From Escherichia coli (lineage in GTDB: Bacteria; Pseudomonadota; Gammaproteobacteria; Enterobacterales; Enterobacteriaceae), in assembly GCF_003790525.1 (NCBI RefSeq), contig NZ_CP033635.1: a stretch of DNA of 64,000 nt. One strand, given 5' to 3'. Of the stretch, positions 14,686 through 58,500 are shown piece after piece; the stretch's first letter is position 1, and every line of letters starts with the position of its first letter. The notes under the pieces are model-generated. The model saw nothing but the letters and a program-made list of their open reading frames with translations, was not told the DNA's origin and ran no database searches. The translations under genes were made by a program, and so were the position numbers.

Positions 14686-17073
<2,388 letters not shown>

Positions 17074-25645: not shown

Positions 25646-27410
<1,765 letters not shown>

Positions 27411-27724
27411 AGTAAATAGCTGACTTATGGATGTGCTGGGGATTCTATGTATTTAGCTGTGGCTTTACCATTACTTTTCCCGTTTTTGACTTAAATAGCA
27501 ATTTACCCGCCAATTCTTGCTGAACATCTATACTTTTTTTGTATTTTTATGCGATTCATTGATTTCTGCAGTACGTGCAGGAAGGAATCGCAGAGCAACA
27601 GTAAAAGAATATGGTTGCTAATGATTTTATTTGATTGATTTCTTTATTGAAAATCAACAATGTGCTTAAAAATCATTCGGGTCGGATTGCCGCGAAAGAA
27701 GTGATACACTAGCGCGTCAATATC

Positions 27725-27773
27725 AGTGCGGTATCAGTATTCAGGTAGCTGTTGAGCCTGGGGCGGTAGCGTG
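27725..27773 (+). promoter_or_regulatory. JUMPstart element with ops (RfaH recruitment) site in the waaQ leader
   Basis: CAGTGCGGTATCAGTATTCAGGTAGCTGTTGAGCCTGGGGCGGTAGCGTG; ops core GGCGGTAGCGTG at 27762-27773. Confidence 0.75.
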
Positions 27774-27822
27774 CTTTTTCTGCTTCACCTTAATCGGATA
27801 ATCTCAACAAAAAGAGTTACTT

Positions 27823-28881
27823 GTGGATAAGCCATTTCGAAGAATTTTGCTCATTAAGATGCGTTTTCATGGGGATATGTTATTAACTACTCCCGTCATT
27901 AGTTCGCTGAAAAAAAATTACCCTGACGCAAAAATCGATGTGCTGCTTTATCAGGACACCATCCCGATCCTGTCTGAAAATCCAGAGATTAACGCGCTCT
28001 ACGGCATAAAAAATAAAAAAGCAAAAGCCTCAGAAAAAATTGCCAACTTTTTCCATCTCATCAAGATATTACGTGCCAATAAGTATGACCTTATCGTTAA
28101 TCTTACCGATCAATGGATGGTTGCTATACTGGTTCGCTTATTAAATGCCCGTGTGAAAATTTCCCAGGATTATCATCATCGGCAGTCTGCTTTTTGGCGT
28201 AATAGTTTCACTCATTTGGTGCCGTTGCAGGGTGGAAATGTGGTGGAAAGTAACTTATCCGTGCTGACGCCATTGGGACTTGAATCGTTGGTGAAGCAGA
28301 CAACCATGAGTTACCCGCCTGCAAGCTGGAAACGTATGCGTCGCGAACTTGATCACGCTGGTGTTGGACAAAATTATGTGGTTATCCAACCTACGGCGCG
28401 GCAAATCTTCAAATGCTGGGACAACGCCAAGTTTTCCGCTGTGATTGATGCCTTACATGCTCGTGGTTATGAAGTCGTTCTGACGTCCGGCCCAGATAAA
28501 GACGATCTGGCCTGCGTCAATGAAATTGCGCAGGGATGCCAGACGCCACCAGTAACGGCGCTGGCCGGAAAGGTGACCTTCCCGGAACTTGGTGCGTTAA
28601 TCGATCATGCGCAGCTGTTTATTGGCGTTGATTCCGCACCGGCGCATATTGCCGCTGCAGTTAATACGCCGCTGATATCGCTGTTTGGTGCGACAGACCA
28701 TATTTTCTGGCGTCCCTGGTCAAATAACATGATTCAATTCTGGGCGGGAGATTACCGGGAAATGCCAACGCGCGATCAGCGTGACCGAAATGAGATGTAT
28801 CTTTCGGTTATTCCGGCGGCAGATGTCATTGCAGCTGTCGATAAATTACTTCCCTCCTCCACGACAGGTACGTCGTTATGA
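27823..28881 (+). CDS. waaQ: LPS heptosyltransferase III (GT9)
   Basis: GT9 heptosyltransferase fold; first gene after JUMPstart; start codon uncertain (GTG 27823, internal TTG, or ATG 27859). Confidence 0.8.
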   Translation: MDKPFRRILLIKMRFHGDMLLTTPVISSLKKNYPDAKIDVLLYQDTIPILSENPEINALYGIKNKKAKASEKIANFFHLIKILRANKYDLIVNLTDQWMVAILVRLLNARVKISQDYHHRQSAFWRNSFTHLVPLQGGNVVESNLSVLTPLGLESLVKQTTMSYPPASWKRMRRELDHAGVGQNYVVIQPTARQIFKCWDNAKFSAVIDALHARGYEVVLTSGPDKDDLACVNEIAQGCQTPPVTALAGKVTFPELGALIDHAQLFIGVDSAPAHIAAAVNTPLISLFGATDHIFWRPWSNNMIQFWAGDYREMPTRDQRDRNEMYLSVIPAADVIAAVDKLLPSSTTGTSL

Positions 28882-30002
28882 TCGTTGCTTTTTGTTTATA
28901 TAAATATTTTCCCTTTGGCGGTTTGCAGCGCGATTTTATGCGTATTGCTCAGACAGTTGCCGCCCGAGGTCATCATGTTCGGGTTTATACCCAGTCGTGG
29001 GAAGGCGAATGCCCTGATGTATTTGAACTGATCAAAGTGCCGGTTAATTCGCATACCAATCACGGGCGCAATGCGGAATATTTTGCCTGGGTGCAAAAAC
29101 ATTTACGTGAACACCCCGTCGATAGAGTCGTTGGATTTAATAAAATGCCGGGGCTGGACGTTTATTATGCCGCTGATGTTTGTTATGCCGAGAAAGTAGC
29201 GCAGGAGAAAGGCTTTTTCTATCGCCTGACGTCACGTTATCGCCATTATGCCGCCTTTGAGCGGGCAACCTTCGAACAGGGCAAGCCGACACAGCTGCTG
29301 ATGCTGACAGATAAGCAAATCGCCGATTTCCAGAAACATTATCAGACTGAAGCGGAACGTTTTCATATTCTGCCACCGGGGATTTATCCTGATCGTAAAT
29401 ATAGCCAGCAACCAGCGAATAGCCGTGAAATCTTCCGTAAGAAGAATGGAATAACCGAACAACAATATTTATTGTTGCAGGTCGGTTCAGACTTCACGCG
29501 TAAAGGTGTCGATCGTTCCATTGAAGCACTTGCTTCGTTACCGGATTCGCTGCGCCACAACACATTACTATATGTTGTTGGGCAGGATAAACCGCGAAAA
29601 TTTGAGGCGCTGGCAGAAAAACGCGGCGTGCGCAGTAATGTTCACTTCTTCTCGGGGCGCAACGATGTCTCGGAATTAATGGCGGCGGCGGATTTATTAC
29701 TTCATCCTGCCTACCAGGAAGCGGCGGGAATTGTGTTGCTGGAAGCGATAACTGCAGGATTACCGGTACTAACAACAGCCGTTTGTGGCTATGCGCATTA
29801 TATTGTCGACGCCAATTGCGGCGAGGCTATTGCTGAGCCATTCCGCCAGGAAACATTGAATGAGATTTTACGCAAAGCGTTAACGCAATCTTCATTGCGC
29901 CAGGCCTGGGCGGAAAATGCGCGACATTATGCTGATACACAAGATTTATACAGTCTGCCAGAGAAAGCGGCGGACATCATAACGGGTGGTCTGGATGGTT
30001 GA
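28878..30002 (+). CDS. waaG: LPS glucosyltransferase I (GT4)
   Basis: 374 aa [25 protein letters not shown]; 4-bp overlap with waaQ. Confidence 0.9.
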
Positions 30003-30792
30003 ACTTAAAGAGCCGTTTGCCACGTTATGGCGCGGTAAAGATCCTTTTGAGGAAGTTAAAACCTTGCAGGGTGAGGTATTTCGTGAACTGGAAACTCGCC
30101 GCACTCTGCGCTTTGAAATGGCGGGCAAAAGCTATTTTCTCAAATGGCATCGCGGCACGACCCTGAAAGAGATAATCAAAAATTTACTCTCATTGCGGAT
30201 GCCAGTATTAGGCGCAGACCGCGAATGGAATGCGATTCATCGACTGCGGGATGTCGGCGTTGATACTATGTATGGGGTGGCATTCGGCGAAAAAGGCATT
30301 AATCCGCTGACCAGAACCTCGTTTATTATTACCGAAGATCTGACACCAACCATCAGTCTGGAAGATTACTGTGCTGACTGGGCGACCAACCCACCAGATG
30401 TTCGCGTAAAGCGTATGCTTATTAAGCGTGTCGCGACGATGGTGCGCGATATGCATGCTGCGGGCATTAACCACCGTGACTGTTATATCTGTCATTTCCT
30501 GCTGCACTTGCCTTTTTCCGGTAAGGAAGAGGAGTTAAAAATTTCAGTAATTGACCTGCACCGGGCGCAGCTTCGCACGCGCGTTCCATGTCGTTGGCGC
30601 GATAAAGATCTTATTGGACTTTATTTTTCTTCGATGAATATTGGCCTGACTCAACGGGATATCTGGCGGTTTATGAAAGTGTATTTTGTCGCCCCGCTTA
30701 AAGACATTCTCAAGCAGGAACAAGGGCTGCTGTCGCAAGCAGAAGAAAAAGCCACAAAAATCAGGGAAAGAACGATTCGAAAATCGTTGTAA
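29995..30792 (+). CDS. waaP: LPS core heptose(I) kinase
   Basis: 265 aa from [20 protein letters not shown]; kinase-like fold. Confidence 0.85.
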
Positions 30793-30807
30793 TTTCCGGA
30801 GAGAAAT

Positions 30808-31824
30808 ATGAGTGCCCACTATTTTAATCCACAAGAGATGATCAATAAGACAATCATCTTCGATGAAAGGCCAGAGGCGTCAGTGGCATCATCATTCCAT
30901 GTTGCTTATGGCATTGATCAGAACTTTCTTTTTGGTTGTGGTGTTTCAATCACGTCAGTTTTGTTACATAACAACGACGTGAGTTTTGTCTTCCACGTTT
31001 TTATTGATGATATCCCTGACGCCGATATCCAGCGTTTATCCCAATTGGCGAAAAGCTATCATACCTGTATCCAGATCCATCTGGTAAATTGTGAACGGCT
31101 TAAGGTATTACCGACGACCAAAAATTGGTCTATTGCCATGTATTTCCGTTTTGTAATTGCAGATTACTTTATTGATCAACAAGATAAGATCCTGTACCTG
31201 GATGCTGATATCGCCTGTCAGGGAACCTTAAAACCGCTGATAACAATGGATCTTGCCAATAACGTTGCTGCTGTTGTTACTGAACGCGATGCTAACTGGT
31301 GGTCGTTACGGGCTCAAAGTCTGCAGTGTAATGAACTTGAAAAGGGTTACTTTAATTCAGGTGTCCTGTTAATTAATACACCTGCGTGGGCGCAGGAGTC
31401 CGTTTCTGCTAAAGCGATGTCGATGCTTGCTGATAAAGCCGTCGTTTCCCGTTTAACCTATATGGATCAAGATATACTAAATCTTATCCTGTTAGGGAAA
31501 GTTAAATTCATTGATGCTAAATACAATACGCAATTTAGTTTAAATTATGAATTAAAAAAATCATTTATTTGTCCAATTAATGATGAAGCCGTATTAATTC
31601 ATTATGTCGGCCCGACAAAACCCTGGCATTACTGGGCCGGTTATCCAAGCGCGCAGCCATTTATCAAAGCCAAAGAAGCATCGCCCTGGAAAAATGAACA
31701 GTTAATGCGGCCAATTAACTCAAATTATGCTCGTTATTGCGCCAAGCATAATTTTAAACAAAATAAACCAATTAACGGGATAATGAATTATATTTATTAT
31801 TTTTATTTAAAGATAATAAAATGA
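30808..31824 (+). CDS. waaO: outer-core alpha-glycosyltransferase, GT8 family (R1-type WaaO-like by position)
   Basis: 338 aa; GT8 hallmarks (YLDADI DxD motif, HYVGPTKPW); the specific name is inferred from gene order QGP-O-T-Y-W-V-L. Confidence 0.6.
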   Translation: MSAHYFNPQEMINKTIIFDERPEASVASSFHVAYGIDQNFLFGCGVSITSVLLHNNDVSFVFHVFIDDIPDADIQRLSQLAKSYHTCIQIHLVNCERLKVLPTTKNWSIAMYFRFVIADYFIDQQDKILYLDADIACQGTLKPLITMDLANNVAAVVTERDANWWSLRAQSLQCNELEKGYFNSGVLLINTPAWAQESVSAKAMSMLADKAVVSRLTYMDQDILNLILLGKVKFIDAKYNTQFSLNYELKKSFICPINDEAVLIHYVGPTKPWHYWAGYPSAQPFIKAKEASPWKNEQLMRPINSNYARYCAKHNFKQNKPINGIMNYIYYFYLKIIK

Positions 31825-31840
31825 CATTGAGAAAAGTTAA

Positions 31841-32836
31841 ATGAATGAATTTATAAAAGAACGGTTTTCGTATTTAGCAGATAATAAAAAAGAAAACGTC
31901 CCAGAGCTAAATGTTTCCTACGGTATCGATAAGAATTTTTTGTATGGTGCTGGCGTTTCAATTTCTTCCGTTTTGATTAATAATTCAGATATTAATTTTG
32001 TCTTTCATGTTTTCACTGATTATGTGGATGATGATTATTTAAAGTCATTTAATGAAACAGCAAAACAATTTAATACCTCAATTATTGTATATTTAATTGA
32101 CCCAAAATACTTTGCTGATCTGCCGACGTCACAGTTTTGGTCGTACGCGACATACTTCAGGGTATTGTCCTTTGAATATCTGAGTGAAAGTATTTCCACA
32201 CTGCTGTATCTGGATGCCGATGTCGTTTGTAAAGGAAGTCTGAAACCTCTCACAAAAATTATATTTAAAGATGAGTTTGCTGCGGTTATTCCTGACAATG
32301 ATAGTACTCAGGCGGCATGTGCAAAACGTCTTAACATTCCCGAAATGAATGGACGTTATTTCAATGCAGGCGTTATCTATGTCAATCTTAAAAAATGGCA
32401 TGAAGCAAATTTGACACCGTATTTACTCACGCTTTTACGAGGGGAAACTAAATATGGCTCTCTTAAATATTTAGATCAGGATGCGTTGAATATCGCATTT
32501 AATATGAATAATATCTACCTCGCGAAGGATTTTGATACTATTTATACCCTGAAAAACGAACTTCATGATCGTAGTCATCGAAAGTATCAGCAAACCATTA
32601 CCGATAAAACAGTATTGATTCACTATACAGGGATAACTAAACCATGGCATAGCTGGGCTGGATATCCGTCTGCATCATACTTTAATATCGCGCGTGAACA
32701 ATCTCCCTGGAAGAAATATCCTCTTAAAGAGGCGCGGACTGTTGCAGAAATGCAGAAACAATATAAGCATCTGTTTGCCCATGGTGAGTATATAAAAGGC
32801 ATAACTTCATTAATTAAGTACAAGCTTAAGAAATAA
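31841..32836 (+). CDS. waaT: outer-core alpha-glycosyltransferase, GT8 family (WaaT-like by position)
   Basis: 331 aa; GT8 motifs YLDADVV, HYTGITKPW; AT-rich. Confidence 0.6.
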   Translation: MNEFIKERFSYLADNKKENVPELNVSYGIDKNFLYGAGVSISSVLINNSDINFVFHVFTDYVDDDYLKSFNETAKQFNTSIIVYLIDPKYFADLPTSQFWSYATYFRVLSFEYLSESISTLLYLDADVVCKGSLKPLTKIIFKDEFAAVIPDNDSTQAACAKRLNIPEMNGRYFNAGVIYVNLKKWHEANLTPYLLTLLRGETKYGSLKYLDQDALNIAFNMNNIYLAKDFDTIYTLKNELHDRSHRKYQQTITDKTVLIHYTGITKPWHSWAGYPSASYFNIAREQSPWKKYPLKEARTVAEMQKQYKHLFAHGEYIKGITSLIKYKLKK

Positions 32837-32845
32837 ATTACTCTT

Positions 32846-33538
32846 ATGATTACAAGTATACGTTACCGCGGCTTCTCATTTTATTACAAAAATAATGATA
32901 ATAAATATAAAGAAATCTTTGATGAAATACTGGCCTATAATTTCAAAACAGTAAAAGTATTACGTAATATTGATGATACCAAAGTATCGTTGATTGATAC
33001 GAAATATGGTCGCTATGTTTTTAAAGTCTTTGCTCCGAAAACGAAAAGGAATGAACGTTTTTTAAAATCTTTTGTAAAAGGTGACTACTATCAGAATTTG
33101 ATCGTTGAAACCGATCGTGTCAGAAGTGCAGGTCTTACTTTTCCTAATGATTTTTATTTTCTGGCTGAGCGTAAAATTTTCAATTATGCCAGTGTTTTTA
33201 TCATGCTTATCGAGTATGTCGAGGGCGTAGAGCTCAATGATATGCCGATTATTCCAGAAGATGTTAAAGCAGAAATTAAGGCTTCAATGGAAAAATTGCA
33301 TGCCTTAAATATGCTATCGGGCGACCCACACCGGGGTAACTTTATCGTTAGTAAAGATGGTGTCAGGATAATTGACCTATCCGGTAAAAGCTGTACGGCA
33401 GAGCGTAAAGCTCGTGATCGTCTGGCCATGGAACGTCACCTGGGTATTGCCAACGAAATAAAAGATTATGGCTACTATTCAGTAATCTACAGAACCAAAC
33501 TACGCAAATTTATTAAAAAATTAAAAGGCAAAGCGTAA
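32846..33538 (+). CDS. waaY: LPS core heptose(II) kinase
   Basis: 230 aa kinase-like protein placed between GT8 genes as WaaY is in known core loci. Confidence 0.75.
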   Translation: MITSIRYRGFSFYYKNNDNKYKEIFDEILAYNFKTVKVLRNIDDTKVSLIDTKYGRYVFKVFAPKTKRNERFLKSFVKGDYYQNLIVETDRVRSAGLTFPNDFYFLAERKIFNYASVFIMLIEYVEGVELNDMPIIPEDVKAEIKASMEKLHALNMLSGDPHRGNFIVSKDGVRIIDLSGKSCTAERKARDRLAMERHLGIANEIKDYGYYSVIYRTKLRKFIKKLKGKA

Positions 33539-33563
33539 ACCACACAGTCAAAACGGAACCAAC

Positions 33564-34592
33564 ATGGATTTATTAGCTGAGAGTATTACTGAAGTCGCTG
33601 TCTCTGGGGAAATTGCTAACACCGATCGTGTGTTAAATATCGCTTACGGTATTGACCGCAACTTTTTATTTGGTGCAGCAGTATCTATGCAATCAGTTGT
33701 TATGCATAACCCGGATCTTGCGGTTAAGTTTCATCTCTTTACTGACTACATTGATGAAGACTATCTACAACGTGTTAATGCTTTTACCAGCAAAAATGCT
33801 AACGTTGAAGTAAGAATTTATAAAGTATCCAGTGCCTTTATTGATATCTTCCCCAGCCTGAAACAGTGGTCTTATGCAACATTCTTCCGTTTAGTTGCGT
33901 TCCAGTATCTGAGTGAAACTATTGAAAATCTGTTATATATCGATGCTGATGTCATCTGTAAAGGCTCATTAGCTGGATTGCTTGATATTAATTTTGATGG
34001 CGATAAATTCGCAGCTGTTATTAAAGATGTGCCTTTTATGCAGGAAAAACCAGCGAAGCGTCTGGCTATAGAGGGGCTTCCAGGGAATTATTTCAACGCC
34101 GGTGTAGTATATCTGCAGCTTGAAGCGTGGGCGAAAAATGATTTTATGAATAAAGCCATTGCTATGCTGGCAAGTGACCCGCAGCACACGAAGTATAAAT
34201 GCCTTGATCAGGATATTTTAAATATTCTGTTCTTTGGTCATTGTATTTTTATTAGCGGCGATTATGATTGCTTTTATGGCATTGACTATGAGTTAAAAAA
34301 TAAAAGCGATGAAGATTATAAAAAGACCATTACCGATGATACTAAGCTGATTCATTATGTTGGCGTAACGAAGCCCTGGAACGACTGGACGAATTATCCC
34401 TGCCAGAAGTATTTTAATGAGGCTTATCAGGCTTCTTGCTGGAATGATGTGGCGTTTATTCCAGCCACGAATGAAAAGCAGTATCAAGTGAAATACCAAC
34501 ATGCAAAGAAAAATGGTGATACGTTTAACGCTTTTATTTACTTCATTAAATTCAAATTAAATAAGTATAAAAGAAAACTATTTAGGCAATAA
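33564..34592 (+). CDS. waaW: outer-core alpha-glycosyltransferase, GT8 family (WaaW-like by position)
   Basis: 342 aa; GT8 motifs YIDADVI, HYVGVTKPW. Confidence 0.6.
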   Translation: MDLLAESITEVAVSGEIANTDRVLNIAYGIDRNFLFGAAVSMQSVVMHNPDLAVKFHLFTDYIDEDYLQRVNAFTSKNANVEVRIYKVSSAFIDIFPSLKQWSYATFFRLVAFQYLSETIENLLYIDADVICKGSLAGLLDINFDGDKFAAVIKDVPFMQEKPAKRLAIEGLPGNYFNAGVVYLQLEAWAKNDFMNKAIAMLASDPQHTKYKCLDQDILNILFFGHCIFISGDYDCFYGIDYELKNKSDEDYKKTITDDTKLIHYVGVTKPWNDWTNYPCQKYFNEAYQASCWNDVAFIPATNEKQYQVKYQHAKKNGDTFNAFIYFIKFKLNKYKRKLFRQ

Positions 34593-34673
34593 TAAAAATT
34601 ATGGATGTCTAAGTTACAATAATAATTAAGGATGAGTCCTATCATATTTTATTAGTTCAGGCAAGAGAACACG

Positions 34674-35657
34674 ATGAGCAATGATTACCCTTTAGTATCC
34701 ATAATAATACCGACGTATAATTCATCTGATTACATTACTGAAACTCTAACGAAATTAGAAAAACAAACTTACCCAAATTTTGAAATTGTTATTGTTAATG
34801 ATGGTTCTAAAGATAACACATCAAATGTTTTGAGAGAGTATGGGTTAACCCACTCTCGATTAATTATTCTCAATAAAGAAAATGGCGGTGTTTCGTCTGC
34901 CAGGAATACAGGTATCCGCAAGGCGCAAGGACAGTTTATATGTTTTATGGATGATGATGATGAGATAGATCCTAACTATCTGCTGAAGATGTATTCCAGA
35001 CAACATGAGACGGGAGGGGATGCGATTTATTGTGGGCTTTATGGACATCATATAAAAAATGGTGTTACTTACTCACCTATAAATACAGATTTTAATGAAG
35101 GGTCTTTACTTTTCGATTTTTTTTATAAAAAGGTCAGATTCCATATAGGGTGCTTGTTTATAAGAAAACAACTCCTGGAAGATAATAATCTTTTTTTTGA
35201 TGAAGATTTACGACTAGGAGAAGATCTGGATTTTATCTATCGACTGCTAATTACATGCGATATGTATGCGGTTCCATATTATATGTATAAGCATAACTAT
35301 AGAGAAAATTCCCTAATGAACTCATGTAGAACCATCACTCATTATCGACATGAGTCATTTGCGCACGAAAGAATCTACTCTTCTGTGATGCAGTTATACA
35401 AAGGTAACCGGAAAGAAGAAATTCATACATTATTGAGTAAAAATAGAACTTATCATAAAACTCGTTATTTATGGAATGTTCTACTTAATGGCGATTTTGA
35501 ATTATTAAATCAATTAGTTGAAAGCAATGAAAAAGAATTGAAAGATTGTAATCTTCTTGGCAAGAGAGATAAGAGGCGAGCAAAAATATTAGCATCAAAA
35601 AACTATATTCTCTGGAGGATGGTAAGACTGGTAAATAGAAAAAAGAATAAACGTTAG
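34674..35657 (+). CDS. waaV: outer-core beta-glycosyltransferase, GT2 family (WaaV-like)
   Basis: 327 aa; GT2 motifs SIIIPTYN, VNDGSKDNT, DDDDE; a GT2 gene immediately before waaL is characteristic of the R1 core locus. Confidence 0.6.
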   Translation: MSNDYPLVSIIIPTYNSSDYITETLTKLEKQTYPNFEIVIVNDGSKDNTSNVLREYGLTHSRLIILNKENGGVSSARNTGIRKAQGQFICFMDDDDEIDPNYLLKMYSRQHETGGDAIYCGLYGHHIKNGVTYSPINTDFNEGSLLFDFFYKKVRFHIGCLFIRKQLLEDNNLFFDEDLRLGEDLDFIYRLLITCDMYAVPYYMYKHNYRENSLMNSCRTITHYRHESFAHERIYSSVMQLYKGNRKEEIHTLLSKNRTYHKTRYLWNVLLNGDFELLNQLVESNEKELKDCNLLGKRDKRRAKILASKNYILWRMVRLVNRKKNKR

Positions 35658-35702
35658 GTCTTGCATTAAATAACCCATCCTCGTAGCATAGGTTGAAATT
35701 AT

Positions 35703-36956
35703 ATGTCGTTTTGTTGGAAAGAAATTAACTCTGGTGTCAAGTCTTTAATTCTCATATTATGTATGTTGTCTTTAATGACTTTGTCTTTGTGGGATGATGT
35801 TGCAACAAAGTTTCTTCATGCAGCTGGAATTATATCTACATTATATTTTCTAGCGACAGCAAAAAAAACAATAACTAATAATCCTACTTTGTTAATTTTT
35901 ATCTCATTATGTCTTTTGGGTATCGTTAATATCATCTGGTATTCACATTATAAAGTTTCAGGCTCGGTTTATACCAATGCATATCGTGGCCCAATGGAAA
36001 CTGGAAAAATTGCCTTGTGTAGTGCTTTTATTTTCTTAGTTCTTTTTGCTAAAGATGAGATGAGAACAAAAATAAAATTTGGGAAACTAATTCTGTTCGC
36101 ATCCCTGGCAACGCAGTTACTTTTTTTTGCGCATGCCATGTGGCAACATTTCTATTTAAACGTAGACCGTGTTGCATTATCAGCTTCCCACGCTACAACA
36201 GCAGGCTACATCATCCTTTTCCCTTCTTTACTGGCATCAATTCTCATTTTAAAATGCGACTTTAGACATAAAACAACATTATATACAATTAACTTCATGC
36301 TTAGCTTATGTGCTGTCATAGTAACTGAAACGCGTGCAGCCATATTAGTGTTTCCATTCTTTGCGTTAATATTAATCGTAATGGATAGTTATATTAATAA
36401 GCGAATTAATTATAAGTTATATTGTTTTATTGCGATTGCATTATTAGCAGGTGTGTTTTCTTTTAAAGATACATTGCTTATGAGAATGAATGACTTAAAT
36501 AACGATTTAGTTAATTATTCGCATGATAACACCAGAACTTCAGTCGGTGCCCGTCTGGCAATGTATGAAGTTGGTTTAAAAACATATTCTCCAATAGGAC
36601 AATCACTGGAAAAACGCGCGGAAAAAATACATGAACTAGAAGAGAAAGAGCCTAGATTAAGTGGCGCTTTACCCTTTGTAGATTCTCATTTGCATAACGA
36701 TCTCATAGATACGTTATCAACGCGTGGTATTCCTGGAGTAGTATTAACAATTTTAGCCTTTTCAGCAATATTCATATATGCCTTAAGAACTGCTAAAGAA
36801 CCTTATATTTTAATCTTGCTTTTTTCACTACTGGTAGTAGGCCTAAGTGATGTAATACTCTTTTCTAAACCGGTTCCGACTGCTGTGTTTGTCACCATAA
36901 TATTGCTTTGTGCTTATTTTAAAGCACAATCGGACCAATGTTTATTAGATAAGTAA
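35703..36956 (+). CDS. waaL: O-antigen ligase
   Basis: 417 aa polytopic membrane protein with a large periplasmic loop; last gene of the waaQ operon. Confidence 0.75.
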   Translation: MSFCWKEINSGVKSLILILCMLSLMTLSLWDDVATKFLHAAGIISTLYFLATAKKTITNNPTLLIFISLCLLGIVNIIWYSHYKVSGSVYTNAYRGPMETGKIALCSAFIFLVLFAKDEMRTKIKFGKLILFASLATQLLFFAHAMWQHFYLNVDRVALSASHATTAGYIILFPSLLASILILKCDFRHKTTLYTINFMLSLCAVIVTETRAAILVFPFFALILIVMDSYINKRINYKLYCFIAIALLAGVFSFKDTLLMRMNDLNNDLVNYSHDNTRTSVGARLAMYEVGLKTYSPIGQSLEKRAEKIHELEEKEPRLSGALPFVDSHLHNDLIDTLSTRGIPGVVLTILAFSAIFIYALRTAKEPYILILLFSLLVVGLSDVILFSKPVPTAVFVTIILLCAYFKAQSDQCLLDK

Positions 36957-36970
36957 TGAATATGTGAAAT

Positions 36971-36994
36971 AAAATCAGCAAGGAAGCTGATTTT
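36971..36994. terminator. bidirectional terminator between convergent waaL and waaC
   Basis: AAAATCAGC-aaggaa-GCTGATTTT perfect hairpin with A/T flanks. Confidence 0.6.
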
Positions 36995-37025
36995 ATTTCA
37001 AAATTATCTATTAAAGAGTTGTAAT

Positions 37026-37997
37026 TTAAATCATGGCAGCGTTTTCTTCAATGAACCGCTTAACAGCATTTGCTGTCAATTGAGACAACTCATTCCCCGG
37101 AGCCCTACAAACCATCTGATTCTTCCCATACCCACCAATTAGTCCCGGATCGGTAGGTCCATAAACCGTGATATTGGGTCTATCCAGTGCCGCCGTTAAA
37201 TGGCTTAACCCCGTATCCACCGACACTACAAATTTAGCCCCAGCCAGTACGCGGGCAACGCCTTCCAGACTCATCTTCGGCAATACTTCAACATAAGCAA
37301 ATCCTTCCGCCAGTCGTTTCGCCCGTTCTTCCTCATGCGGCGCGCCCCACGGAAGTTTAATCCGTATTCCTGAATCAGCCAGTAAACCAATCAATTCTCG
37401 CCAGTGTTCTTCCGGCCAGTGTTTATCATCTCGGGTTGTTGCATGAAGAAATACGGCATATTCGCCAGCATCTGTAGGCAGGTTCGTCAGGAAATGCTGT
37501 GCGATAGCATAATCGCCCTGGGTTTGTGGTTTGCTATAGCCCAGACTTTTGGCAAACAGTTCGCGGGTGCGTTCTACGGCGTGCTGCTGTTTTGCAATAT
37601 GATGTTTACGATTGTAAAACAGGCTGGCTAACGGTTCGCGAGCGGTTTGCCAGTCCATTCCATGCTTTACGCCATGCGCCAGACGCGTCACCAGCGCTGC
37701 GCTTTTTACCAGCCCCTGAGCGTCGATAACTGCGTCATAATTCTCTGCTTGTAGCGTTTCACGAAACGCTTTGCGTTCAGCTTTTATGGGGGCCGAGAAC
37801 CAGGCTTTACGCCAGCGACGTATTGCCACAGGAATAACTCGCTCAACGGCGGCGTGCCAGGAAGGAATCTGTGTGAACCCTTCTTCCACCACCCAGTCAA
37901 ACTTAATCCCTGGGATTGCCTGCTGGGCATCAGTGAGTGCGGGCAGCGTATGGAGAACATCGCCCATCGACGATGTTTTAACGATCAGAACCCGCAT
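37026..37997 (-). CDS. waaC: LPS heptosyltransferase I (GT9)
   Basis: MRVLIVKTSSMGDVLHTLPALTDAQQAIPGIKFDWVVEE. Confidence 0.9.
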   Translation of the reverse strand: MRVLIVKTSSMGDVLHTLPALTDAQQAIPGIKFDWVVEEGFTQIPSWHAAVERVIPVAIRRWRKAWFSAPIKAERKAFRETLQAENYDAVIDAQGLVKSAALVTRLAHGVKHGMDWQTAREPLASLFYNRKHHIAKQQHAVERTRELFAKSLGYSKPQTQGDYAIAQHFLTNLPTDAGEYAVFLHATTRDDKHWPEEHWRELIGLLADSGIRIKLPWGAPHEEERAKRLAEGFAYVEVLPKMSLEGVARVLAGAKFVVSVDTGLSHLTAALDRPNITVYGPTDPGLIGGYGKNQMVCRAPGNELSQLTANAVKRFIEENAAMI

Positions 37998-38000
37998 CCG

Positions 38001-39047
38001 TCAGGCTTCCTCTTGTAACAATAGCGCGTTGAGTTCTTCCAGTACGCGCTGGGGAGTAATGTCGATCAAGCTCTGGTGATAACCCTCCGCTGCGTCACCT
38101 TTACGCACTTTGTGATAGCCGGTAATCAGGCGGATCACGCGTGCTTTATGGGATAGCGGCGGTGTGAAGTCCGGGCTACTCGGACCATACAAGGCAACCA
38201 GCGGACGATTGAGCGCCGCCGCAACGTGCATCAGGCCAGAATCGTTAGTGACAATGGCTTTACAGGCTGCAATCAGGATAACCGCTTGATCAAGCTGTGT
38301 TTCCCCTGCCAGGTTCCGGCACCATGCCTGCTGCTCAGTATTTAAAGCGGCAAGAATCTCATTGCCCGCTTCATGATCTTTCGCAGAGCCAAACAGAACC
38401 ACCTGATAACCTTCATCAATCAGCTGCTTTGCCAGCTCCGCATAGTGGTAGTGTGGCCAGCGTTTTGCCGGACCAAACTCCGCTCCGGGGCAAAAGCCAA
38501 TCATCGGACGTTCTGATGAGAGCGAAAATTGATTACAGGTATATGATTTTTCACCTTCGCTCACCTGCAACTGCGGCCATAACAATGGCTGCGGCAGATC
38601 TTGTGCTGTACGCATAATGCCTTTGTCATAGGCCAGCGCCACATAGCGTTCCACCATTAGCGGCCAGGCTTCTTTATCGAGCACGCGTACATCGTTAAGT
38701 AAACCGTAGCGCATCTCGCCGCGCCAGCCGGTGCGATGAGGAATACCCGCGAAGAAAGGCACTAATGCGGATTTGAAGGAGTTGGGTAAGACGTAGGCGC
38801 GGTCGTAGCGCTTTTCACGCAGACTATGACCCAGTTTGCGGCGTTCGCCGATTTCCAGCGCTCCGTGACCGAGAGGCATAGGGATCGCTTCGTTAACTTC
38901 CGGCATCCGCGATAATAATGGACGGCACCATGCCGGTGCCATCACGTCGATTATCGCCTGGGGATAGCGCGCCTGGAGCGTGCGATAGAGACTTTGCGAC
39001 ATCATCATGTCGCCAACCCAAGACGGGCCGATCACCAGTATTTTCAT
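38001..39047 (-). CDS. waaF: LPS heptosyltransferase II (GT9)
   Basis: 348 aa MKILVIGPSWVGDMMMSQSLYRTLQ. Confidence 0.9.
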   Translation of the reverse strand: MKILVIGPSWVGDMMMSQSLYRTLQARYPQAIIDVMAPAWCRPLLSRMPEVNEAIPMPLGHGALEIGERRKLGHSLREKRYDRAYVLPNSFKSALVPFFAGIPHRTGWRGEMRYGLLNDVRVLDKEAWPLMVERYVALAYDKGIMRTAQDLPQPLLWPQLQVSEGEKSYTCNQFSLSSERPMIGFCPGAEFGPAKRWPHYHYAELAKQLIDEGYQVVLFGSAKDHEAGNEILAALNTEQQAWCRNLAGETQLDQAVILIAACKAIVTNDSGLMHVAAALNRPLVALYGPSSPDFTPPLSHKARVIRLITGYHKVRKGDAAEGYHQSLIDITPQRVLEELNALLLQEEA

Positions 39048-39056
39048 GCAGAGCTC

Positions 39057-39989
39057 TTATGCGTCACGATTCAGCCAGGCCATGTATTCCGTTACGCCTT
39101 CGGCAACGGTTTTGAACGGTTTATCGTAACCCGCCGCGCGCAGATTCGTCAGATCTGCCTGCGTGAACGCCTGGTAGCGGCCTTTCAGTTTATCCGGGAA
39201 CGGAATGTATTCGATTTGGCCTTTCTTGTGATAAGCAAGTGTAGCATCTGCTACTGCCTGGAAGGATTCCGCACGACCGGTGCCGAGGTTGAAGATGCCG
39301 GAAACGCCATTTTCCAGGAACCACAGGTTTACATCTGCCACATCGCCCACATAGACGAAGTCACGTTTGAAGTTCTCGCTACCTTCGAACAGCTTCGGTG
39401 ATTCACCGTTATTAAGCTGGGTGTTGAGATGGAAAGCGACGCTCGCCATGCTGCCTTTATGGCCTTCACGCGGTCCATAAACGTTGAAATAACGGAAGCC
39501 AACAATCTGCGAGTTGGCTTCCGGCAGGATTTGGCGAACATATTCATCAAACAGGAACTTCGAATAACCGTAGACGTTAAGTGGTTTTTCGTACTCGCGG
39601 GATTCAATAAAGTCGGAAGTGCGTCCGCCGTAAGTGGCTGCAGAAGAAGCGTACAGCAACGGGATTTCGCGCTCCAGGCAGTAGTGCAGCAGCTCTTTGG
39701 AGTATTGATAGTTGTTATCCATCATATACTTGCCGTCCCACTCGGTGGTGGAAGAGCACGCGCCTTCGTGGAAAATCGCTTCGACATCGCCGAACTCTTC
39801 GCCAGCCATAATCTGGATCAGGAAGTCTTCCTTATCCATATAGTCCGCGATATCCAGATCCACCAGGTTCACAAACTTGGTGCCGTCTTTCAGGTTATCC
39901 ACCACCAGAATATCGGTGATGCCTTTGTCATTCAGGGCTTTAACGATGTTGCTGCCGATAAAGCCCGCGCCGCCGGTAACGATGATCAT
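39057..39989 (-). CDS. hldD: ADP-L-glycero-D-manno-heptose 6-epimerase
   Basis: 310 aa [23 protein letters not shown] (Rossmann NAD motif). Confidence 0.92.
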
Positions 39990-40202
39990 AACTGTAACCT
40001 TCGAATTATGGAGTCAGAGACAATCTCAGACACGAATGCTTCTATCATATCACTACACGGCGTTGGCTTCAGCCATTCGCCAAAAGTGAGATTGATGGAC
40101 GTTATTTATCCTGAATTTTGCAGAAGTGTTAATGCGTCATCTCGTCGCGACCTATAAGTTTGGGTAATATGTGCTGGAATTTGCCCTGTCTGGAGAATCG
40201 CA

Positions 40203-42672: not shown

Positions 42673-43707
42673 ATGATGAACAGCACTAATAAACTAAGTG
42701 TTATTATCCCGTTATATAATGCGGGCGATGATTTCAGCGCTTGCATGGAATCTTTAATCGCGCAAACCTGGACTGCTCTGGAAATCATTATTATTAACGA
42801 TGGTTCAACGGATAATTCTGTTGAAATAGCAAAGCATTACGCAGAAAACTATCCGCACGTTCGTTTGTTGCATCAGGCGAATGCTGGCGCATCGGTGGCG
42901 CGTAATCGTGGGATCGAGGTGGCGACGGGCAAATATGTCGCTTTTGTCGATGCTGACGATGAGGTGTATCCCACCATGTACGAAACGCTGATGACCATGG
43001 CGTTAGAGGACGACCTCGACGTGGCGCAGTGCAACGCTGATTGGTGTTTTCGTGAAACGGGTGAAACCTGGCAATCCATCCCTACCGATCGCCTTCGCTC
43101 AACCGGTGTATTAACCGGTCCGGACTGGCTGCGGATGGGGCTTTCTTCCCGCCGTTGGACACACGTGGTCTGGATGGGGGTTTATCGCCGCGATGTTATT
43201 GTTAAAAATAACATTAAATTTATTGCCGGATTACATCATCAGGATATTGTCTGGACAACAGAATTTATGTTTAACGCGCTGCGTGCGCGATATACCGAGC
43301 AATCATTATATAAATATTATCTGCATAATACGTCAGTGAGTCGGTTGAACAGACAAGGGAACAAAAACCTTAATTATCAACGTCACTATATTAAGATTAC
43401 CCGCCTGCTGGAGAAATTAAATCGAAATTATGCCGACAAAATTACGATTTATCCGGAATTTCATCAGCAAATAACCTACGAAGCATTGCGTGTTTGCCAT
43501 GCGGTGCGCAAAGAGCCGGATATTATTACCCGCCAACGGATGATTGCCGAGATATTTACTTCCGGTATGTATAAGCGCCTGATTACCAATGTGCGCAGCG
43601 TGAAGGTGGGTTATCAGGCGTTACTGTGGTCTTTCCGCTTATGGCAATGGCGCGACAAAACGCGGTCGCACCATCGCATTACGCGTAGCGCCTTTAATTT
43701 GCGCTAG
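42673..43707 (+). CDS. waaH: GT2-family glycosyltransferase WaaH (YibD)
   Basis: 344 aa; GT2 motifs SVIIPLYN, INDGSTDNS, DADDE. Confidence 0.8.
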   Translation: MMNSTNKLSVIIPLYNAGDDFSACMESLIAQTWTALEIIIINDGSTDNSVEIAKHYAENYPHVRLLHQANAGASVARNRGIEVATGKYVAFVDADDEVYPTMYETLMTMALEDDLDVAQCNADWCFRETGETWQSIPTDRLRSTGVLTGPDWLRMGLSSRRWTHVVWMGVYRRDVIVKNNIKFIAGLHHQDIVWTTEFMFNALRARYTEQSLYKYYLHNTSVSRLNRQGNKNLNYQRHYIKITRLLEKLNRNYADKITIYPEFHQQITYEALRVCHAVRKEPDIITRQRMIAEIFTSGMYKRLITNVRSVKVGYQALLWSFRLWQWRDKTRSHHRITRSAFNLR

Positions 43708-55502: not shown

Positions 55503-58500
55503 TTACCACTGAATACCGGCACCGAGTGCGGCGGAGTATTCACCCTGGCTATTGGTACTACCTTGTAATTTGTAGACCCAACGACCATTGGCGCTCACCA
55601 TCGACACACCTAAAGCAACAGCCGATTCACCGTTGTAAGTACCACCACCAATAGAGGCCATGCTGGCTCCCGGCGTGTAAGCCTGCGGCAGACCGGTCAT
55701 TGCCATTGCGGAAGCGATACCACCGCTCAACTTGCTTTCGGTTTTGGACAGTTTGTTATCCATCTCAACCATGCGCTGATCGGTGTATTGCTTCGTTTCC
55801 TGCACACTTTGCTTCAGCTGCGCATAGTTCACCGCGTCGTTGTTGTTCACGCCAGCAGAAACGTTGCTGATGCGAGTCGTACCGCCATTTCCGCCACCGA
55901 GAGTGATGTTGCTGTAGTCGATAGAGCCATCAGCTTTGGTGTCGTAGCGAACGCCGCCTGCTTCAGAAGACTTCAGTTGTGAAACGTTAACCGCATCGGT
56001 GGCATTAACACCGGCAGCAACGTTGGTGATACGGCGCTGGTTGGTAGAAGAACCCACAGAGATGGTGTTTTCTTCGTTGGCCACGGAACCGGTACCCAGC
56101 GCGACGCTGTTGTCAGCGGCAGCAATGGAACCAGAACCAATTGCAACACTGTCTTTACCCTGCGCGTTGGCATCTACGCCATCGGTGTTGGTCTTGAAGT
56201 ATTTGGTGCTACCGGTGGTTACGATATCGCCAATGCCGTTTTCGATATTGGTCACGCGAGTATCCAGATTCGTCACCTGATTGTTCAGGTTAGTAATGCT
56301 CTGGGTATTCTGGGAAACCTGCGCGTCCGTTACTTTCAACTGACCCACGTTAACCGCATCGGTATCCGCTGAACCAGCCGCGACGTTGGTGATCTGACGT
56401 TGACCGTCTTCACTGCCGACAGAGAACTCACCCACAGAGTTCTGTGGTGCGTCCATGTTGTAGGCGCTGTAGTTGGTCTGCGCACCACGGGTAGTCTGAG
56501 AACCATTCCCCATTGCAATGCTGTTTGCATGGTTTGCACTTGCGTTGCTACCGATAGCAATACCATTGATCGCATCAGCCAGAACTAAAGTGTTCAGGCC
56601 GATACCAATACCCGCATTACCATTAACGATGGTTTTTGCGCCCATTGCCAGCGAGTCTTCACCGACTGCCAGTGAGTCTTCTGCCGTTGAGTTGGCGTGA
56701 TAGTACTTGGTTGGCGTAGTGGCGACCGCGCCAATAGCGTTTTGCAACTGGCGAACCGTAACGGCGTCATGGGCTTCGGAACCATCGGCTACGTTGATGA
56801 TTTGACGATATTTACCATCGTCACCGATCGACAATGCGCCAAGCAGTTCACCATCAGTTGTGTCATAACCAATCACAACACCTTCTTCCGACACGCTGGT
56901 GTCACGAGAACCTTTAACTATTAAACGGCTGGAAACGGAACTGCTACCCAGGGCGATACCCGTCTCAACTTCGCTGCGGCTGTCCTGACCAATGGCTACG
57001 CTGCTGGCTTTGGAAGCAACAGAGTTATAACCCACTGCTGTAGCGCCAACACCCTGTGCGCTGGCATCGGTGAAGGTTAAACCGGTGTCATTGGTACGCA
57101 CATAGTTAATACCTGCACCATTTTCTTCGATGTAGGTTTCACTGGTGTTACCAGCAAGCTGATTAATGACTTCGCTGTTCTGCTGGATCAGCATATTGGT
57201 GTTAAACAGCTGAGAACCGTTGATAGCATCGGTGCTGCCTTCCCCGATATTACCATCAGCGACATTAGTGATGATGCTGGCTTTGCCATCATGACTGGCG
57301 TTGTAAGCCCCTTCGCCGTTATTGGCTGTCGCATCCCACAGCAACGCGTTCTCATCAAGCGCATCCAGAGCTTCACCGACGTTGTTGTAATCGGTATTTG
57401 CAATGGTGTAAGTCGGCGCAGTGATAGTGCCGTCAGCGTTGACTTCTGCGTTACCGCCCAGCGCATCAGCGATGTACTTATTGGTGGTATAGAGTTGTGA
57501 GCCGTTAATCGCGTCGCTGCTGGTGGCAGAGATTGCACCATTTGCGACGTTAGTAATCTTACTGGCGGTGTTATCTACCCCGCGACCGGCGCTGAATGCA
57601 CCAGCACCGTCATTGGCTGTCGCATCCCAGAGCAGGGCATCACCGAGAGAATCACTAAATGAAGTGTTAATTGCGGCCAGAGCATCCCCGACGTTAGTGT
57701 AGTCAGTGCCGCCAATACTATAGGTTGGCCCGGTTAATACACCTGTATCGCTAATATCAGCACCACCACCCAGATAGGACGTGAATGAATCAGCCAAACC
57801 ATATAGTTGTGAGCCATTTATGGCGTCAGTGCTGTCAGAGGAGACTATGCCAGCTTGTACGTTGCTGATTTTGTTGGTGGCGTTAGTACCGTGTGCAGCG
57901 GTGAATGCGCCTGCGGCGTCGTCCCATTTCAGGGCGTCTTCACCGAGATTATTCACCGTATCAGTCAGGTTAGTGATATTGGTGGTGTTAGTGGCGATAT
58001 TGGTGGTGTTGGTCGCCACGTTATCGTTGGTGGTTTTCAGCTGGGAGCCGTTAACCGCGTCAGTGCTGCCAGCAGTCAGGTCGCCAGCGGTGACGTTGGT
58101 GATTTTGCTGGTGGCATCGGTGCCGTGCGCGGCGCTGAATGCGCCAGCCGCTTTGTTCCACAGCAGGGAATCATCACCAAGACTGTCAACAGCGTTAGTC
58201 AGGTTGGTGATATTGGTGGTGTTAGTGGCGATATTGGTGGTGTTGGTCGCCACGTTATCGTTGGTGGTTTTCAGCTGAGAACCGTTGACGGCGTCGGTGC
58301 TGCCAGCAGTCAGGTCGCCAGCGGTGACGTTGGTGATTTTGCTGGTGGCATCGGTGCCGTGCGCGGCGCTGAATGCGCCAGCCGCTTTGTTCCACAGCAG
58401 GGAATCATCACCGAGACTGTCAACAGCGTTAGTCAGGTTGGTGATATTGGTGGTGTTAGTGGCGATATTGGTGGTGTTGGTCGCCACGTTATCGTTGGTG

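Follow-up and report, generated by a model that had tools for sequence, protein, structure and literature searches.

The R1 core type has strain F470 as its prototype and is found also in E. coli C, in E. coli B (truncated), in Shigella sonnei and in many ExPEC strains. In the long waaQ operon, the JUMPstart/ops element is the recruitment site of the RfaH antiterminator. R1 is the commonest core type overall, with a published frequency of 35%, and is encountered in commensals and pathogens alike. Its defining gene is waaV, whose product is described in the published R1 work as adding a beta-Glc side branch, the site of O-antigen attachment. The choice of O-antigens for ligation and the adsorption of LPS-binding phages depend on the core type, as does the cross-reaction of anti-core antibodies or vaccines; a correct R1 call is therefore a useful strain annotation.

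The cluster described here lies in a 64,000-nucleotide stretch of E. coli DNA (contig NZ_CP033635.1, hereafter the window) and is almost certainly the canonical chromosomal R1 core-type waaQ operon, waaQ-G-P-O-T-Y-W-V-L. The analysis shows which genes are present, in what order and intact, as well as their core type, their place on the chromosome and how common the cluster is; nothing observed speaks directly against this reading. R1 loci, with their enzymes and their spread in the population, have been described before, and the present copy is a typical intact example without new biology.

Genes and leader of the waaQ operon

Flanking the waaQ operon are waaA on one side and the hldD-waaF-waaC operon on the other. 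Listed below are the features of the region with the evidence for each.

26133..27410, minus strand: waaA, Kdo transferase, conserved left flank (annotation; divergent from the waaQ operon; 99.5-100% identical across all types)
27735..27773, plus strand: JUMPstart element with ops GGCGGTAGCGTG (27762-27773), 50 nt upstream of waaQ
27823..28881, plus strand: waaQ (rfaQ), heptosyltransferase III, inner core (NCBIfam NF007742, 712.7 bits, cut-off 467; rfaQ in the SMS-3-5 annotation)
28878..30002, plus strand: waaG, GT4 glucosyltransferase I, GlcI onto HepII (annotation; 99% identical in R1/R3/R4 strains, 90.4% to K-12 WaaG)
29995..30792, plus strand: waaP (rfaP), heptose(I) kinase (NCBIfam NF011703, 479 bits, cut-off 170; annotated start 29995)
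30808..31824, plus strand: waaO, GT8, 338 aa (Pfam GT8 and GT8C; 95.9-96.7% identical to R1 strains, 51% to K-12 WaaO)
31841..32836, plus strand: waaT, GT8 UDP-galactose:(glucosyl)LPS alpha-1,2-galactosyltransferase, 331 aa (Pfam GT8; source names; 99.7% identical to ExPEC XM)
32846..33538, plus strand: waaY (rfaY), heptose(II) kinase, 230 aa (Pfam WaaY, E 3.8e-129; NCBIfam NF007684, 400.7 bits, cut-off 248)
33564..34592, plus strand: waaW, GT8, 342 aa (annotation; Pfam; 99% identical to R1 strains, 92% to R4)
34433..35274, no strand: R1 diagnostic amplicon, primer R1R4-R (waaW) to R1-F (waaV), 842 bp, the expected size
34522..37097, no strand: segment differing between R1 and R4, 2.6 kb (waaW 3' end, waaV, waaL, waaC 3' end)
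34674..35657, plus strand: waaV, GT2 beta-1,3-glucosyltransferase, 327 aa (Pfam GT2, E 8e-39; source name 'Beta1,3-glucosyltransferase')
35703..36956, plus strand: waaL, R1-specific O-antigen ligase, 417 aa (Pfam Wzy_C; closes the waaQ operon in the same orientation, as it does in R1 and R4)
36965..37000, no strand: palindrome with a perfect 15-bp stem between the convergent waaL and waaC, a terminator-like site read from the sequence
37026..37997, minus strand: waaC (rfaC), heptosyltransferase I, conserved right flank (annotation; C-terminal tail varies by core type)

All nine ORFs of the waaQ operon are full length and without stops. Six of them, intact, all on the plus strand and free of internal stops, make up positions 30808-36956 (the block). 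The original prediction, made from the sequence alone, had read GT8, GT8, WaaY kinase, GT8, GT2 and WaaL after waaQ-waaG-waaP, and the ORFs were found exactly where it had placed them. Their Pfam domains are, in order, Glyco_transf_8 with 8C, Glyco_transf_8 with 8C, WaaY, Glyco_transf_8 with 8C, Glycos_transf_2 and Wzy_C, with E-values given as 1e-80 to 3e-18 for the six ORFs and the WaaY match listed individually at 3.8e-129. The exact protein sequences are common alleles, because each is found on ~940 to more than 1000 contigs.

Of the six proteins, WaaO differs most from its counterparts in other R1 strains. In the published account of the R1 pathway it acts as the glucosyltransferase for the second hexose of the outer core (GlcII, alpha-1,3); PGAP/NCBIfam label it 'galactosyltransferase', in conflict with this role. 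WaaW is common to R1 and R4 save for its last ~32 residues, all divergence from R4 being at the C-terminus, and LgtC 1G9R aligns with it at the DxD motif. WaaV is 96.9-99.4% identical to the proteins of R1 strains and has no counterpart in the R4, R3 and K-12 loci. WaaL is 96.2-97.8% identical to that of R1 strains, 35% to that of R4 and 30% to that of K-12, while the R2 and R3 WaaL gave no match; an alignment with the solved WaaL (7TPG) takes in its TR and H-x-H-N-D stretches. The palindrome behind waaL is probably a bidirectional terminator.

The JUMPstart element was identified as Rfam RF01707 with 55.2 bits (gathering score 35, E 1.6e-10), and the match to the ops 12-mer is exact. With ops in its 5' leader, the waaQ operon is a putative RfaH-dependent operon. 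A generic promoter scan gave 36 sites, no excess over the 29.9 +/- 6.1 in shuffled sequence.

From published work on R1 strains we infer the following pathway, both its enzymatic steps and its expression in this strain. From a start upstream of waaQ, transcription would be carried through the long AT-rich operon by RfaH, which ops/JUMPstart would recruit. WaaG would put GlcI on HepII, after which WaaP would phosphorylate HepI, WaaQ would add HepIII and WaaY would phosphorylate HepII. GlcII would be added by WaaO, GalI by WaaT and GalII by WaaW; WaaV would place the beta-1,3-glucose branch on GlcII, and the R1-specific ligase WaaL would attach the O-antigen to this branch. Gene content and literature together predict an outer core of GlcI-GlcII(beta-Glc)-GalI-GalII, with the O-antigen on beta-Glc.

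Core type of the locus and alternative readings

Nine published core-typing primers were run in silico. Only the R1 pair matched the window, both primers exactly, giving the R1 product alone, with exactly the length expected; even with up to 3 mismatches allowed, none of the remaining seven primers found a site in the window, and the R2, R3, R4 and K-12 pairs were negative. Control loci were typed correctly by the same primers (R4, 380 bp; K-12, 1442 bp; R3, 1021 bp; R2, 610 bp). Protein comparison with the R1, R2, R3, R4 and K-12 loci likewise excluded the other four types. All six block proteins are 96-99.7% identical over their full length to those of two R1 strains, ExPEC XM and BL21(DE3), references whose type comes from PCR, in-silico typing or a published phenotype, used in place of the prototype F470; the R2, R3 and K-12 counterparts are at most 55% identical or missing. 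ExPEC XM is listed as R1 in a published typing table, and the waaT of BL21(DE3) is interrupted by IS1, as fits the truncated R1 core published for E. coli B.

Gene order is colinear with both reference strains, and positions 26808-40200 align in one piece to a standard R1 strain (98.2% identity), without rearrangement. Strain 2D, entered in the typing table as R1, phylogroup F and ST354, is 100% identical over 27800-37000. By tblastn, WaaX, WaaZ, WaaB, WaaS, WaaU, R2 WaaL and R3 WaaL have no match anywhere in the window. Most markers of K-12 (waaU, waaS, waaB, waaZ), R2 (waaK, waaZ, waaB) and R3 (the genes named waaJ and waaD in the typing paper, plus R3 waaL) also lack a tblastn match there, the rest hitting distant paralogues at 23-44% identity. 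The locus has waaV, lacks waaX and carries the R1-specific waaL allele as last gene of the waaQ operon; the features that define K-12, R2, R3 or R4 membership were not found in it. Every check called for with the original prediction thus bears out its reading of an R1 set rather than a K-12 one. The K-12 order it gave (waaS-B-O-J-Y-Z-U), together with an oppositely oriented waaL, agrees with the MG1655 annotation.

Since R4 has waaO-T-Y-W in common with R1, the locus might be taken for R4. An R4 strain matches it at 92-98.5% identity in WaaO, WaaT, WaaY and WaaW and, at the nucleotide level, at 98.3% up to 34521; about half of phylogroup F is R4. However, the R4-F primer fails even at 3 mismatches, the GT25 protein WaaX has no tblastn match in the window, the gene at the waaX position encodes a GT2 97-99% identical to R1 WaaV, and WaaL is merely 35% identical to its R4 namesake; R4 identity was refuted on these four points, and its probability is practically nil. 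It is exceedingly improbable that the locus is a hybrid or a novel sixth core type, such as an R1/R4 chimera like that of ECOR46 or an R2/K-12-style hybrid. Such hybrids occur in ~1% of genomes, and an allele at least 99% identical to the present one is found in only 118 of the matching genomes, but the colinear R1 alignment, the single waaL, the lack of waaX and the lack of any IS element in the window led to the rejection of both the R1/R4 hybrid and the novel type. The genome of SMS-3-5 has one matching place for the block, and no second copy of waaL or waaX is visible in the window or there.

A cluster that is R1 by sequence may still be non-functional in the strain, its core cut short like that of E. 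coli B; inactivated waa genes occur in laboratory and some natural strains, and expression cannot be read from sequence. This is very unlikely here, as the nine operon ORFs are uninterrupted and identical to alleles on hundreds to thousands of contigs, the GT8 DxD and WaaL Arg/His stretches align with solved relatives, and JUMPstart is intact. A truncated locus was rejected after testing, as was a recent island.

Base composition, distribution and lineage

The block is AT-rich, as had been noticed in the original prediction, with a GC content of 0.353 against 0.523 outside 27411-36956. The lowest-GC stretch of 6149 bp in the window starts at 30886; elsewhere in the window GC is 0.48-0.55, and every stretch of this length beyond the waa variable region has at least 0.484. 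Third codon positions agree: GC3 is 0.27-0.37 for the six block genes, against 0.45-0.62 for their neighbours. The outer-core regions of all five core types have a GC content of 0.33-0.35, and within R1 strains the block is 97-99.7% identical, the flanks 95-99%. With AT-richness equal across the five types and divergence of the R1 block no greater than that of the flanks, low GC is not proof of recent transfer. The suggestion of horizontal exchange therefore stands insofar as the composition fits a foreign origin of outer-core genes generally; it is not specific to R1 and carries no sign of recent transfer. Cassette exchange is shown instead by the sharp similarity boundaries between types and by the mixture of types within single phylogroups, as in F with 46% R1 and 51% R4.

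The compositional step, from 0.52 to 0.35, is sharp at either end, as would be seen in a genomic island newly acquired by the lineage of the source strain. The chance of this is nevertheless very slight: the block occupies one same site, waaP to waaC, in 1825 genomes, no integrase, tRNA or IS is annotated at the locus, divergence among R1 strains is equal in block and flanks, and AT-richness is equal in all five core types. A plasmid search with the R1-specific segment returned two records only, of 4.8 Mb and 1.0 Mb, apparently mislabelled chromosomes, and gave no sign of plasmid carriage.

The whole block was found at the same site in 33.6% of the complete genomes (1825 of 5426), which fits the published R1 frequency. 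The window is identical to E. coli SMS-3-5 (phylogroup F, ST354, an environmental water isolate with a non-pathogenic listing) save for one base. An extraintestinal or commensal lineage rather than K-12 had been proposed: the R1 type does exclude a strain with a K-12 core, but it is no indication of an extraintestinal one. The match is in fact to a water isolate, and R1 tells little of lineage because it is the commonest type in all lifestyles.

Comparison with the R4, K-12 and R1 operons

The R4 operon (waaQGPOTYWXL) is nearly identical from waaQ through most of waaW and, as here, has waaL last and co-oriented, with an outer-core GC of 0.346. It differs in having the GT25 gene waaX where the present locus has the GT2 gene waaV, in its dissimilar WaaL, and in other C-terminal tails of WaaW and WaaC. 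In blastn, an R4 locus aligns at 98.3% identity as far as 34521 and again at 97.2% from 37098 on; the segment between gives no alignment. The R1/R4 cassette has both junctions inside coding sequence, the left one within the final ~32 codons of waaW and the right one within the waaC 3' tail. As a result, the WaaW and WaaC C-terminal tails always move together with either waaV and the R1 waaL or waaX and the R4 waaL. It is very improbable that the tails are adapted in function to the side-branch transferase or the ligase and are not mere hitch-hikers of the recombination breakpoints. Membrane association or enzyme-enzyme contacts may be named as example routes of such matching.

The K-12 operon (waaQGPSBOJYZU) shares with the locus its chromosomal site, its flanks waaA, waaC/F and hldD, the use of GT8 enzymes and WaaY, and an AT-rich outer core (GC 0.332). 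Its waaS, waaB, waaZ and waaU are absent here, the GT8 and WaaY proteins are 38-52% identical, waaL lies on the other strand, in the opposite operon, and even WaaQ, WaaG and WaaP are just 73-90% identical.

E. coli B differs from the present locus, which is without its IS1. From R1 strains the differences are allelic only, as in WaaO, which is ~96% identical; relative to two other R1 strains the WaaC tail is 3 residues shorter. In gene content, order, orientation, chromosomal site, exact PCR product and the JUMPstart/ops element upstream, the locus is like the R1 operon, waaQGPOTYWVL.

Gene content and core type of the outer-core block

The block of outer-core genes (30808-36956) consists of six plus-strand ORFs with intergenic gaps of 9-81 nt, and internal stops are found in none of the six. 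ORF mapping and Pfam searches reproduced exactly the gene families and coordinates of the original prediction. Three further core genes lie upstream of the block.

27823-28881, RfaQ (waaQ)
28878-30002, GT4 gene annotated waaG
29995-30792, RfaP (waaP)
30808-31824, +, waaO, 338 aa, Pfam GT8 and GT8C
31841-32836, +, waaT, 331 aa, Pfam GT8 and GT8C
32846-33538, +, waaY, 230 aa, Pfam WaaY
33564-34592, +, waaW, 342 aa, Pfam GT8 and GT8C
34674-35657, +, waaV, 327 aa, Pfam GT2
35703-36956, +, waaL, 417 aa, Pfam Wzy_C (O-antigen ligase)

In E. coli SMS-3-5 (NC_010498.1), RefSeq annotates between waaA and rfaC-rfaF-rfaD the genes rfaQ, waaG, rfaP, waaO, a GT8 protein and rfaY, followed by a [quoted passage not shown], a GT2 protein and an O-antigen ligase family protein.

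The window proteins were compared by tblastn with reference loci of the five core types: R1 (ExPEC XM and BL21(DE3)), R2, R3, R4 and K-12. ExPEC XM is typed R1 in the table of PMC13293308, and waaT of BL21(DE3) is interrupted by IS1, which agrees with the truncated R1 core described for E. coli B.

Identity of the outer-core proteins to the reference loci
WaaO: R1 95.9-96.7%; R4 95.3%; R2, R3 and K-12 50-55%
WaaT: R1 99.4-99.7%; R4 98.5%; R2, R3 and K-12 43-45%
WaaY: R1 98.7-99.6%; R4 98.3%; R2, R3 and K-12 52-54%
WaaW: R1 98.8-99.1%; R4 92.4%; R2, R3 and K-12 37-38%
WaaV: R1 96.9-99.4%; R4, no counterpart
WaaL: R1 96.2-97.8%; R4 35%; K-12 30%; R2 and R3, no match

In the R4 locus the position of waaV is occupied by a GT25 gene. 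WaaV has no counterpart in the R2, R3 or K-12 core clusters; its sole match in the R2 locus (33.8% over the N-terminal 43%) coincides with the annotated waaH, which suggests that, of the GT2 paralogues in the region, WaaH is the closest to it. In the window, waaH (UDP-glucuronate:LPS(HepIII) glycosyltransferase) is located downstream of tdh at about 42673-43707 on the plus strand. Reverse searches of the whole 64 kb with WaaX, WaaZ, WaaB, WaaS, WaaU and the R2 and R3 WaaL proteins gave no match.

A set of nine primers published in 2025 types 99% of 4,549 genomes and was validated in vitro on reference strains (PMC13293308). In silico, R1R4-R matches exactly at 34433-34452 in waaW and R1-F at 35256-35274 in waaV, giving an 842-bp product, as published for R1; the remaining seven primers have no match in the window, even with 3 mismatches allowed. 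Control loci, one per type, gave the published products (R4 380 bp, K-12 1442 bp, R3 1021 bp, R2 610 bp). The original prediction was an R1 gene set and not the K-12 arrangement, and every test it proposed, including protein comparison and core-type PCR, returned R1.

Proposed operon control and core assembly

A JUMPstart element that includes an exact match to ops is located at 27735-27773, 50 nt upstream of waaQ, and would be expected to recruit RfaH to the long operon. Between the convergent waaL and waaC genes lies an AT-rich palindrome with a perfect 15-bp stem (36965-37000), probably a bidirectional terminator.

Following published work on R1 strains, GlcI would be added by WaaG, the heptoses decorated by WaaP, WaaQ and WaaY, and GlcII, GalI and GalII added successively by WaaO, WaaT and WaaW. 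WaaV would then form the R1-defining beta-1,3-Glc branch, the O-antigen carrier, and WaaL would perform ligation. WaaW aligns to the GT8 structure LgtC over the DxD stretch, GT2 structures match WaaV, and WaaL aligns to the solved ligase 7TPG, TR and H-x-H-N-D stretches included; these alignments support the prediction of intact enzymes. WaaO is named "lipopolysaccharide 3-alpha-galactosyltransferase" in NCBIfam NF011718 and PGAP; in the R1 literature it is the glucosyltransferase adding GlcII, and the galactosyl name was probably carried over from a homologue.

Cassette boundaries and base composition

Against R4, similarity of 98.3% extends through 34521 and resumes from 37098, and the R1/R4 difference is therefore a 2.6-kb cassette that runs from the final ~32 codons of waaW through waaV and waaL into the 3' end of waaC. 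Both breakpoints are intragenic (waaW 3' end, 34522-34592; waaC 3' end, 37026-37097), and the C-terminal ends of the two proteins (~32 residues in WaaW, the tail in WaaC) vary with core type. WaaC, at 323 aa, is 3 residues shorter than in two other R1 strains through an in-frame 9-nt difference (37026-37060), ending in ...ENA-AMI versus ...ENAEKAAMI or ...ENAENAAMI. Against R3, similarity stops at 30857, 50 nt inside waaO, and restarts at 37069, an interval almost exactly that originally predicted. Divergence from K-12 and R2 reaches further left (WaaQ 73%, WaaG 88-90%, WaaP 84%).

The reported AT-richness is real and well beyond local fluctuation. GC content is 0.353 in the block versus 0.523 in the window outside 27411-36956; the 6149-bp stretch of minimum GC in the 64 kb begins at 30886, and stretches of that length outside the waa variable region never fall below 0.484. 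The six genes have GC3 values of 0.27-0.37, compared with 0.45-0.62 for neighbouring genes. The original prediction read this composition as consistent with horizontal exchange of outer-core cassettes. Outer-core GC is 0.33-0.35 in all five core types, R1 strains from phylogroups F and B2 and from the B lineage are no less alike in the block (97-99.7% identity) than in the flanks (95-99%), and the annotation has no mobility genes at the block; low GC is thus an old shared trait of outer-core genes and does not mark them as recently imported by this strain. Within-species cassette exchange is better supported by the sharp junctions in conserved genes, and the mixture of types inside phylogroups (45.7% R1 and 51.4% R4 in phylogroup F) points the same way.

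Lineage, relatives and distribution

R1 and the adhesin were also taken to indicate an extraintestinal or commensal lineage. The adhesin gene is present, encoding a YadA-like trimeric autotransporter of 1549 aa (about 55503-60152, minus strand, between lldP and yibL); R1, being the commonest core type in pathogens and commensals alike, is not diagnostic of lineage, and the matching strain is an environmental member of phylogroup F. The adhesin site is empty in one phylogroup A strain. The gene has internal repeats at about 57805-58866, and immediately upstream are a DUF3251 gene and another patch of low GC (0.38-0.41, 60001-61250).

The matching strain, SMS-3-5 (O19:H34, phylogroup F, ST354), was isolated from water, is listed as non-pathogenic and is also described as an environmental multidrug-resistant isolate. 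The entire window aligns to it with no mismatches and one 1-base gap, in a G5 run at 15351-15355 within ligB (about 14777-16459, plus strand). The run is G6 in NC_010498.1 and in every one of the closest complete genomes, and the G5 version has an exact match in 0 of 5426 genomes. It breaks ligB into ORFs 14772-15365 and 15392-16459, and represents either a true frameshift or a homopolymer error introduced in sequencing or assembly. One paper ties alleles of mutM, ligB and recG, all within the window, to fluoroquinolone-resistant isolates resembling SMS-3-5.

SMS-3-5 and at least 14 further complete genomes share the region 27800-37000 with 100% identity. The PMC13293308 table lists strain 2D, whose locus has the same sequence as the window's, as R1, phylogroup F, ST354. 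Matches to the block all lie at one chromosomal place; the sole "plasmid" matches (PLSDB NZ_OL790696.1 and CP061233.1, 4.8 Mb and 1.0 Mb), both containing the chromosomal waa locus, appear to be chromosomal sequence that was labelled wrongly. The whole block is present in 1825 of 5426 complete genomes (33.6%), and about 700 more match its first 60% only, the pattern of an R4 locus, in agreement with published frequencies of 35.4% for R1 and 12.3% for R4. Overall, the block belongs to an intact R1 waa locus of the textbook kind, already known.
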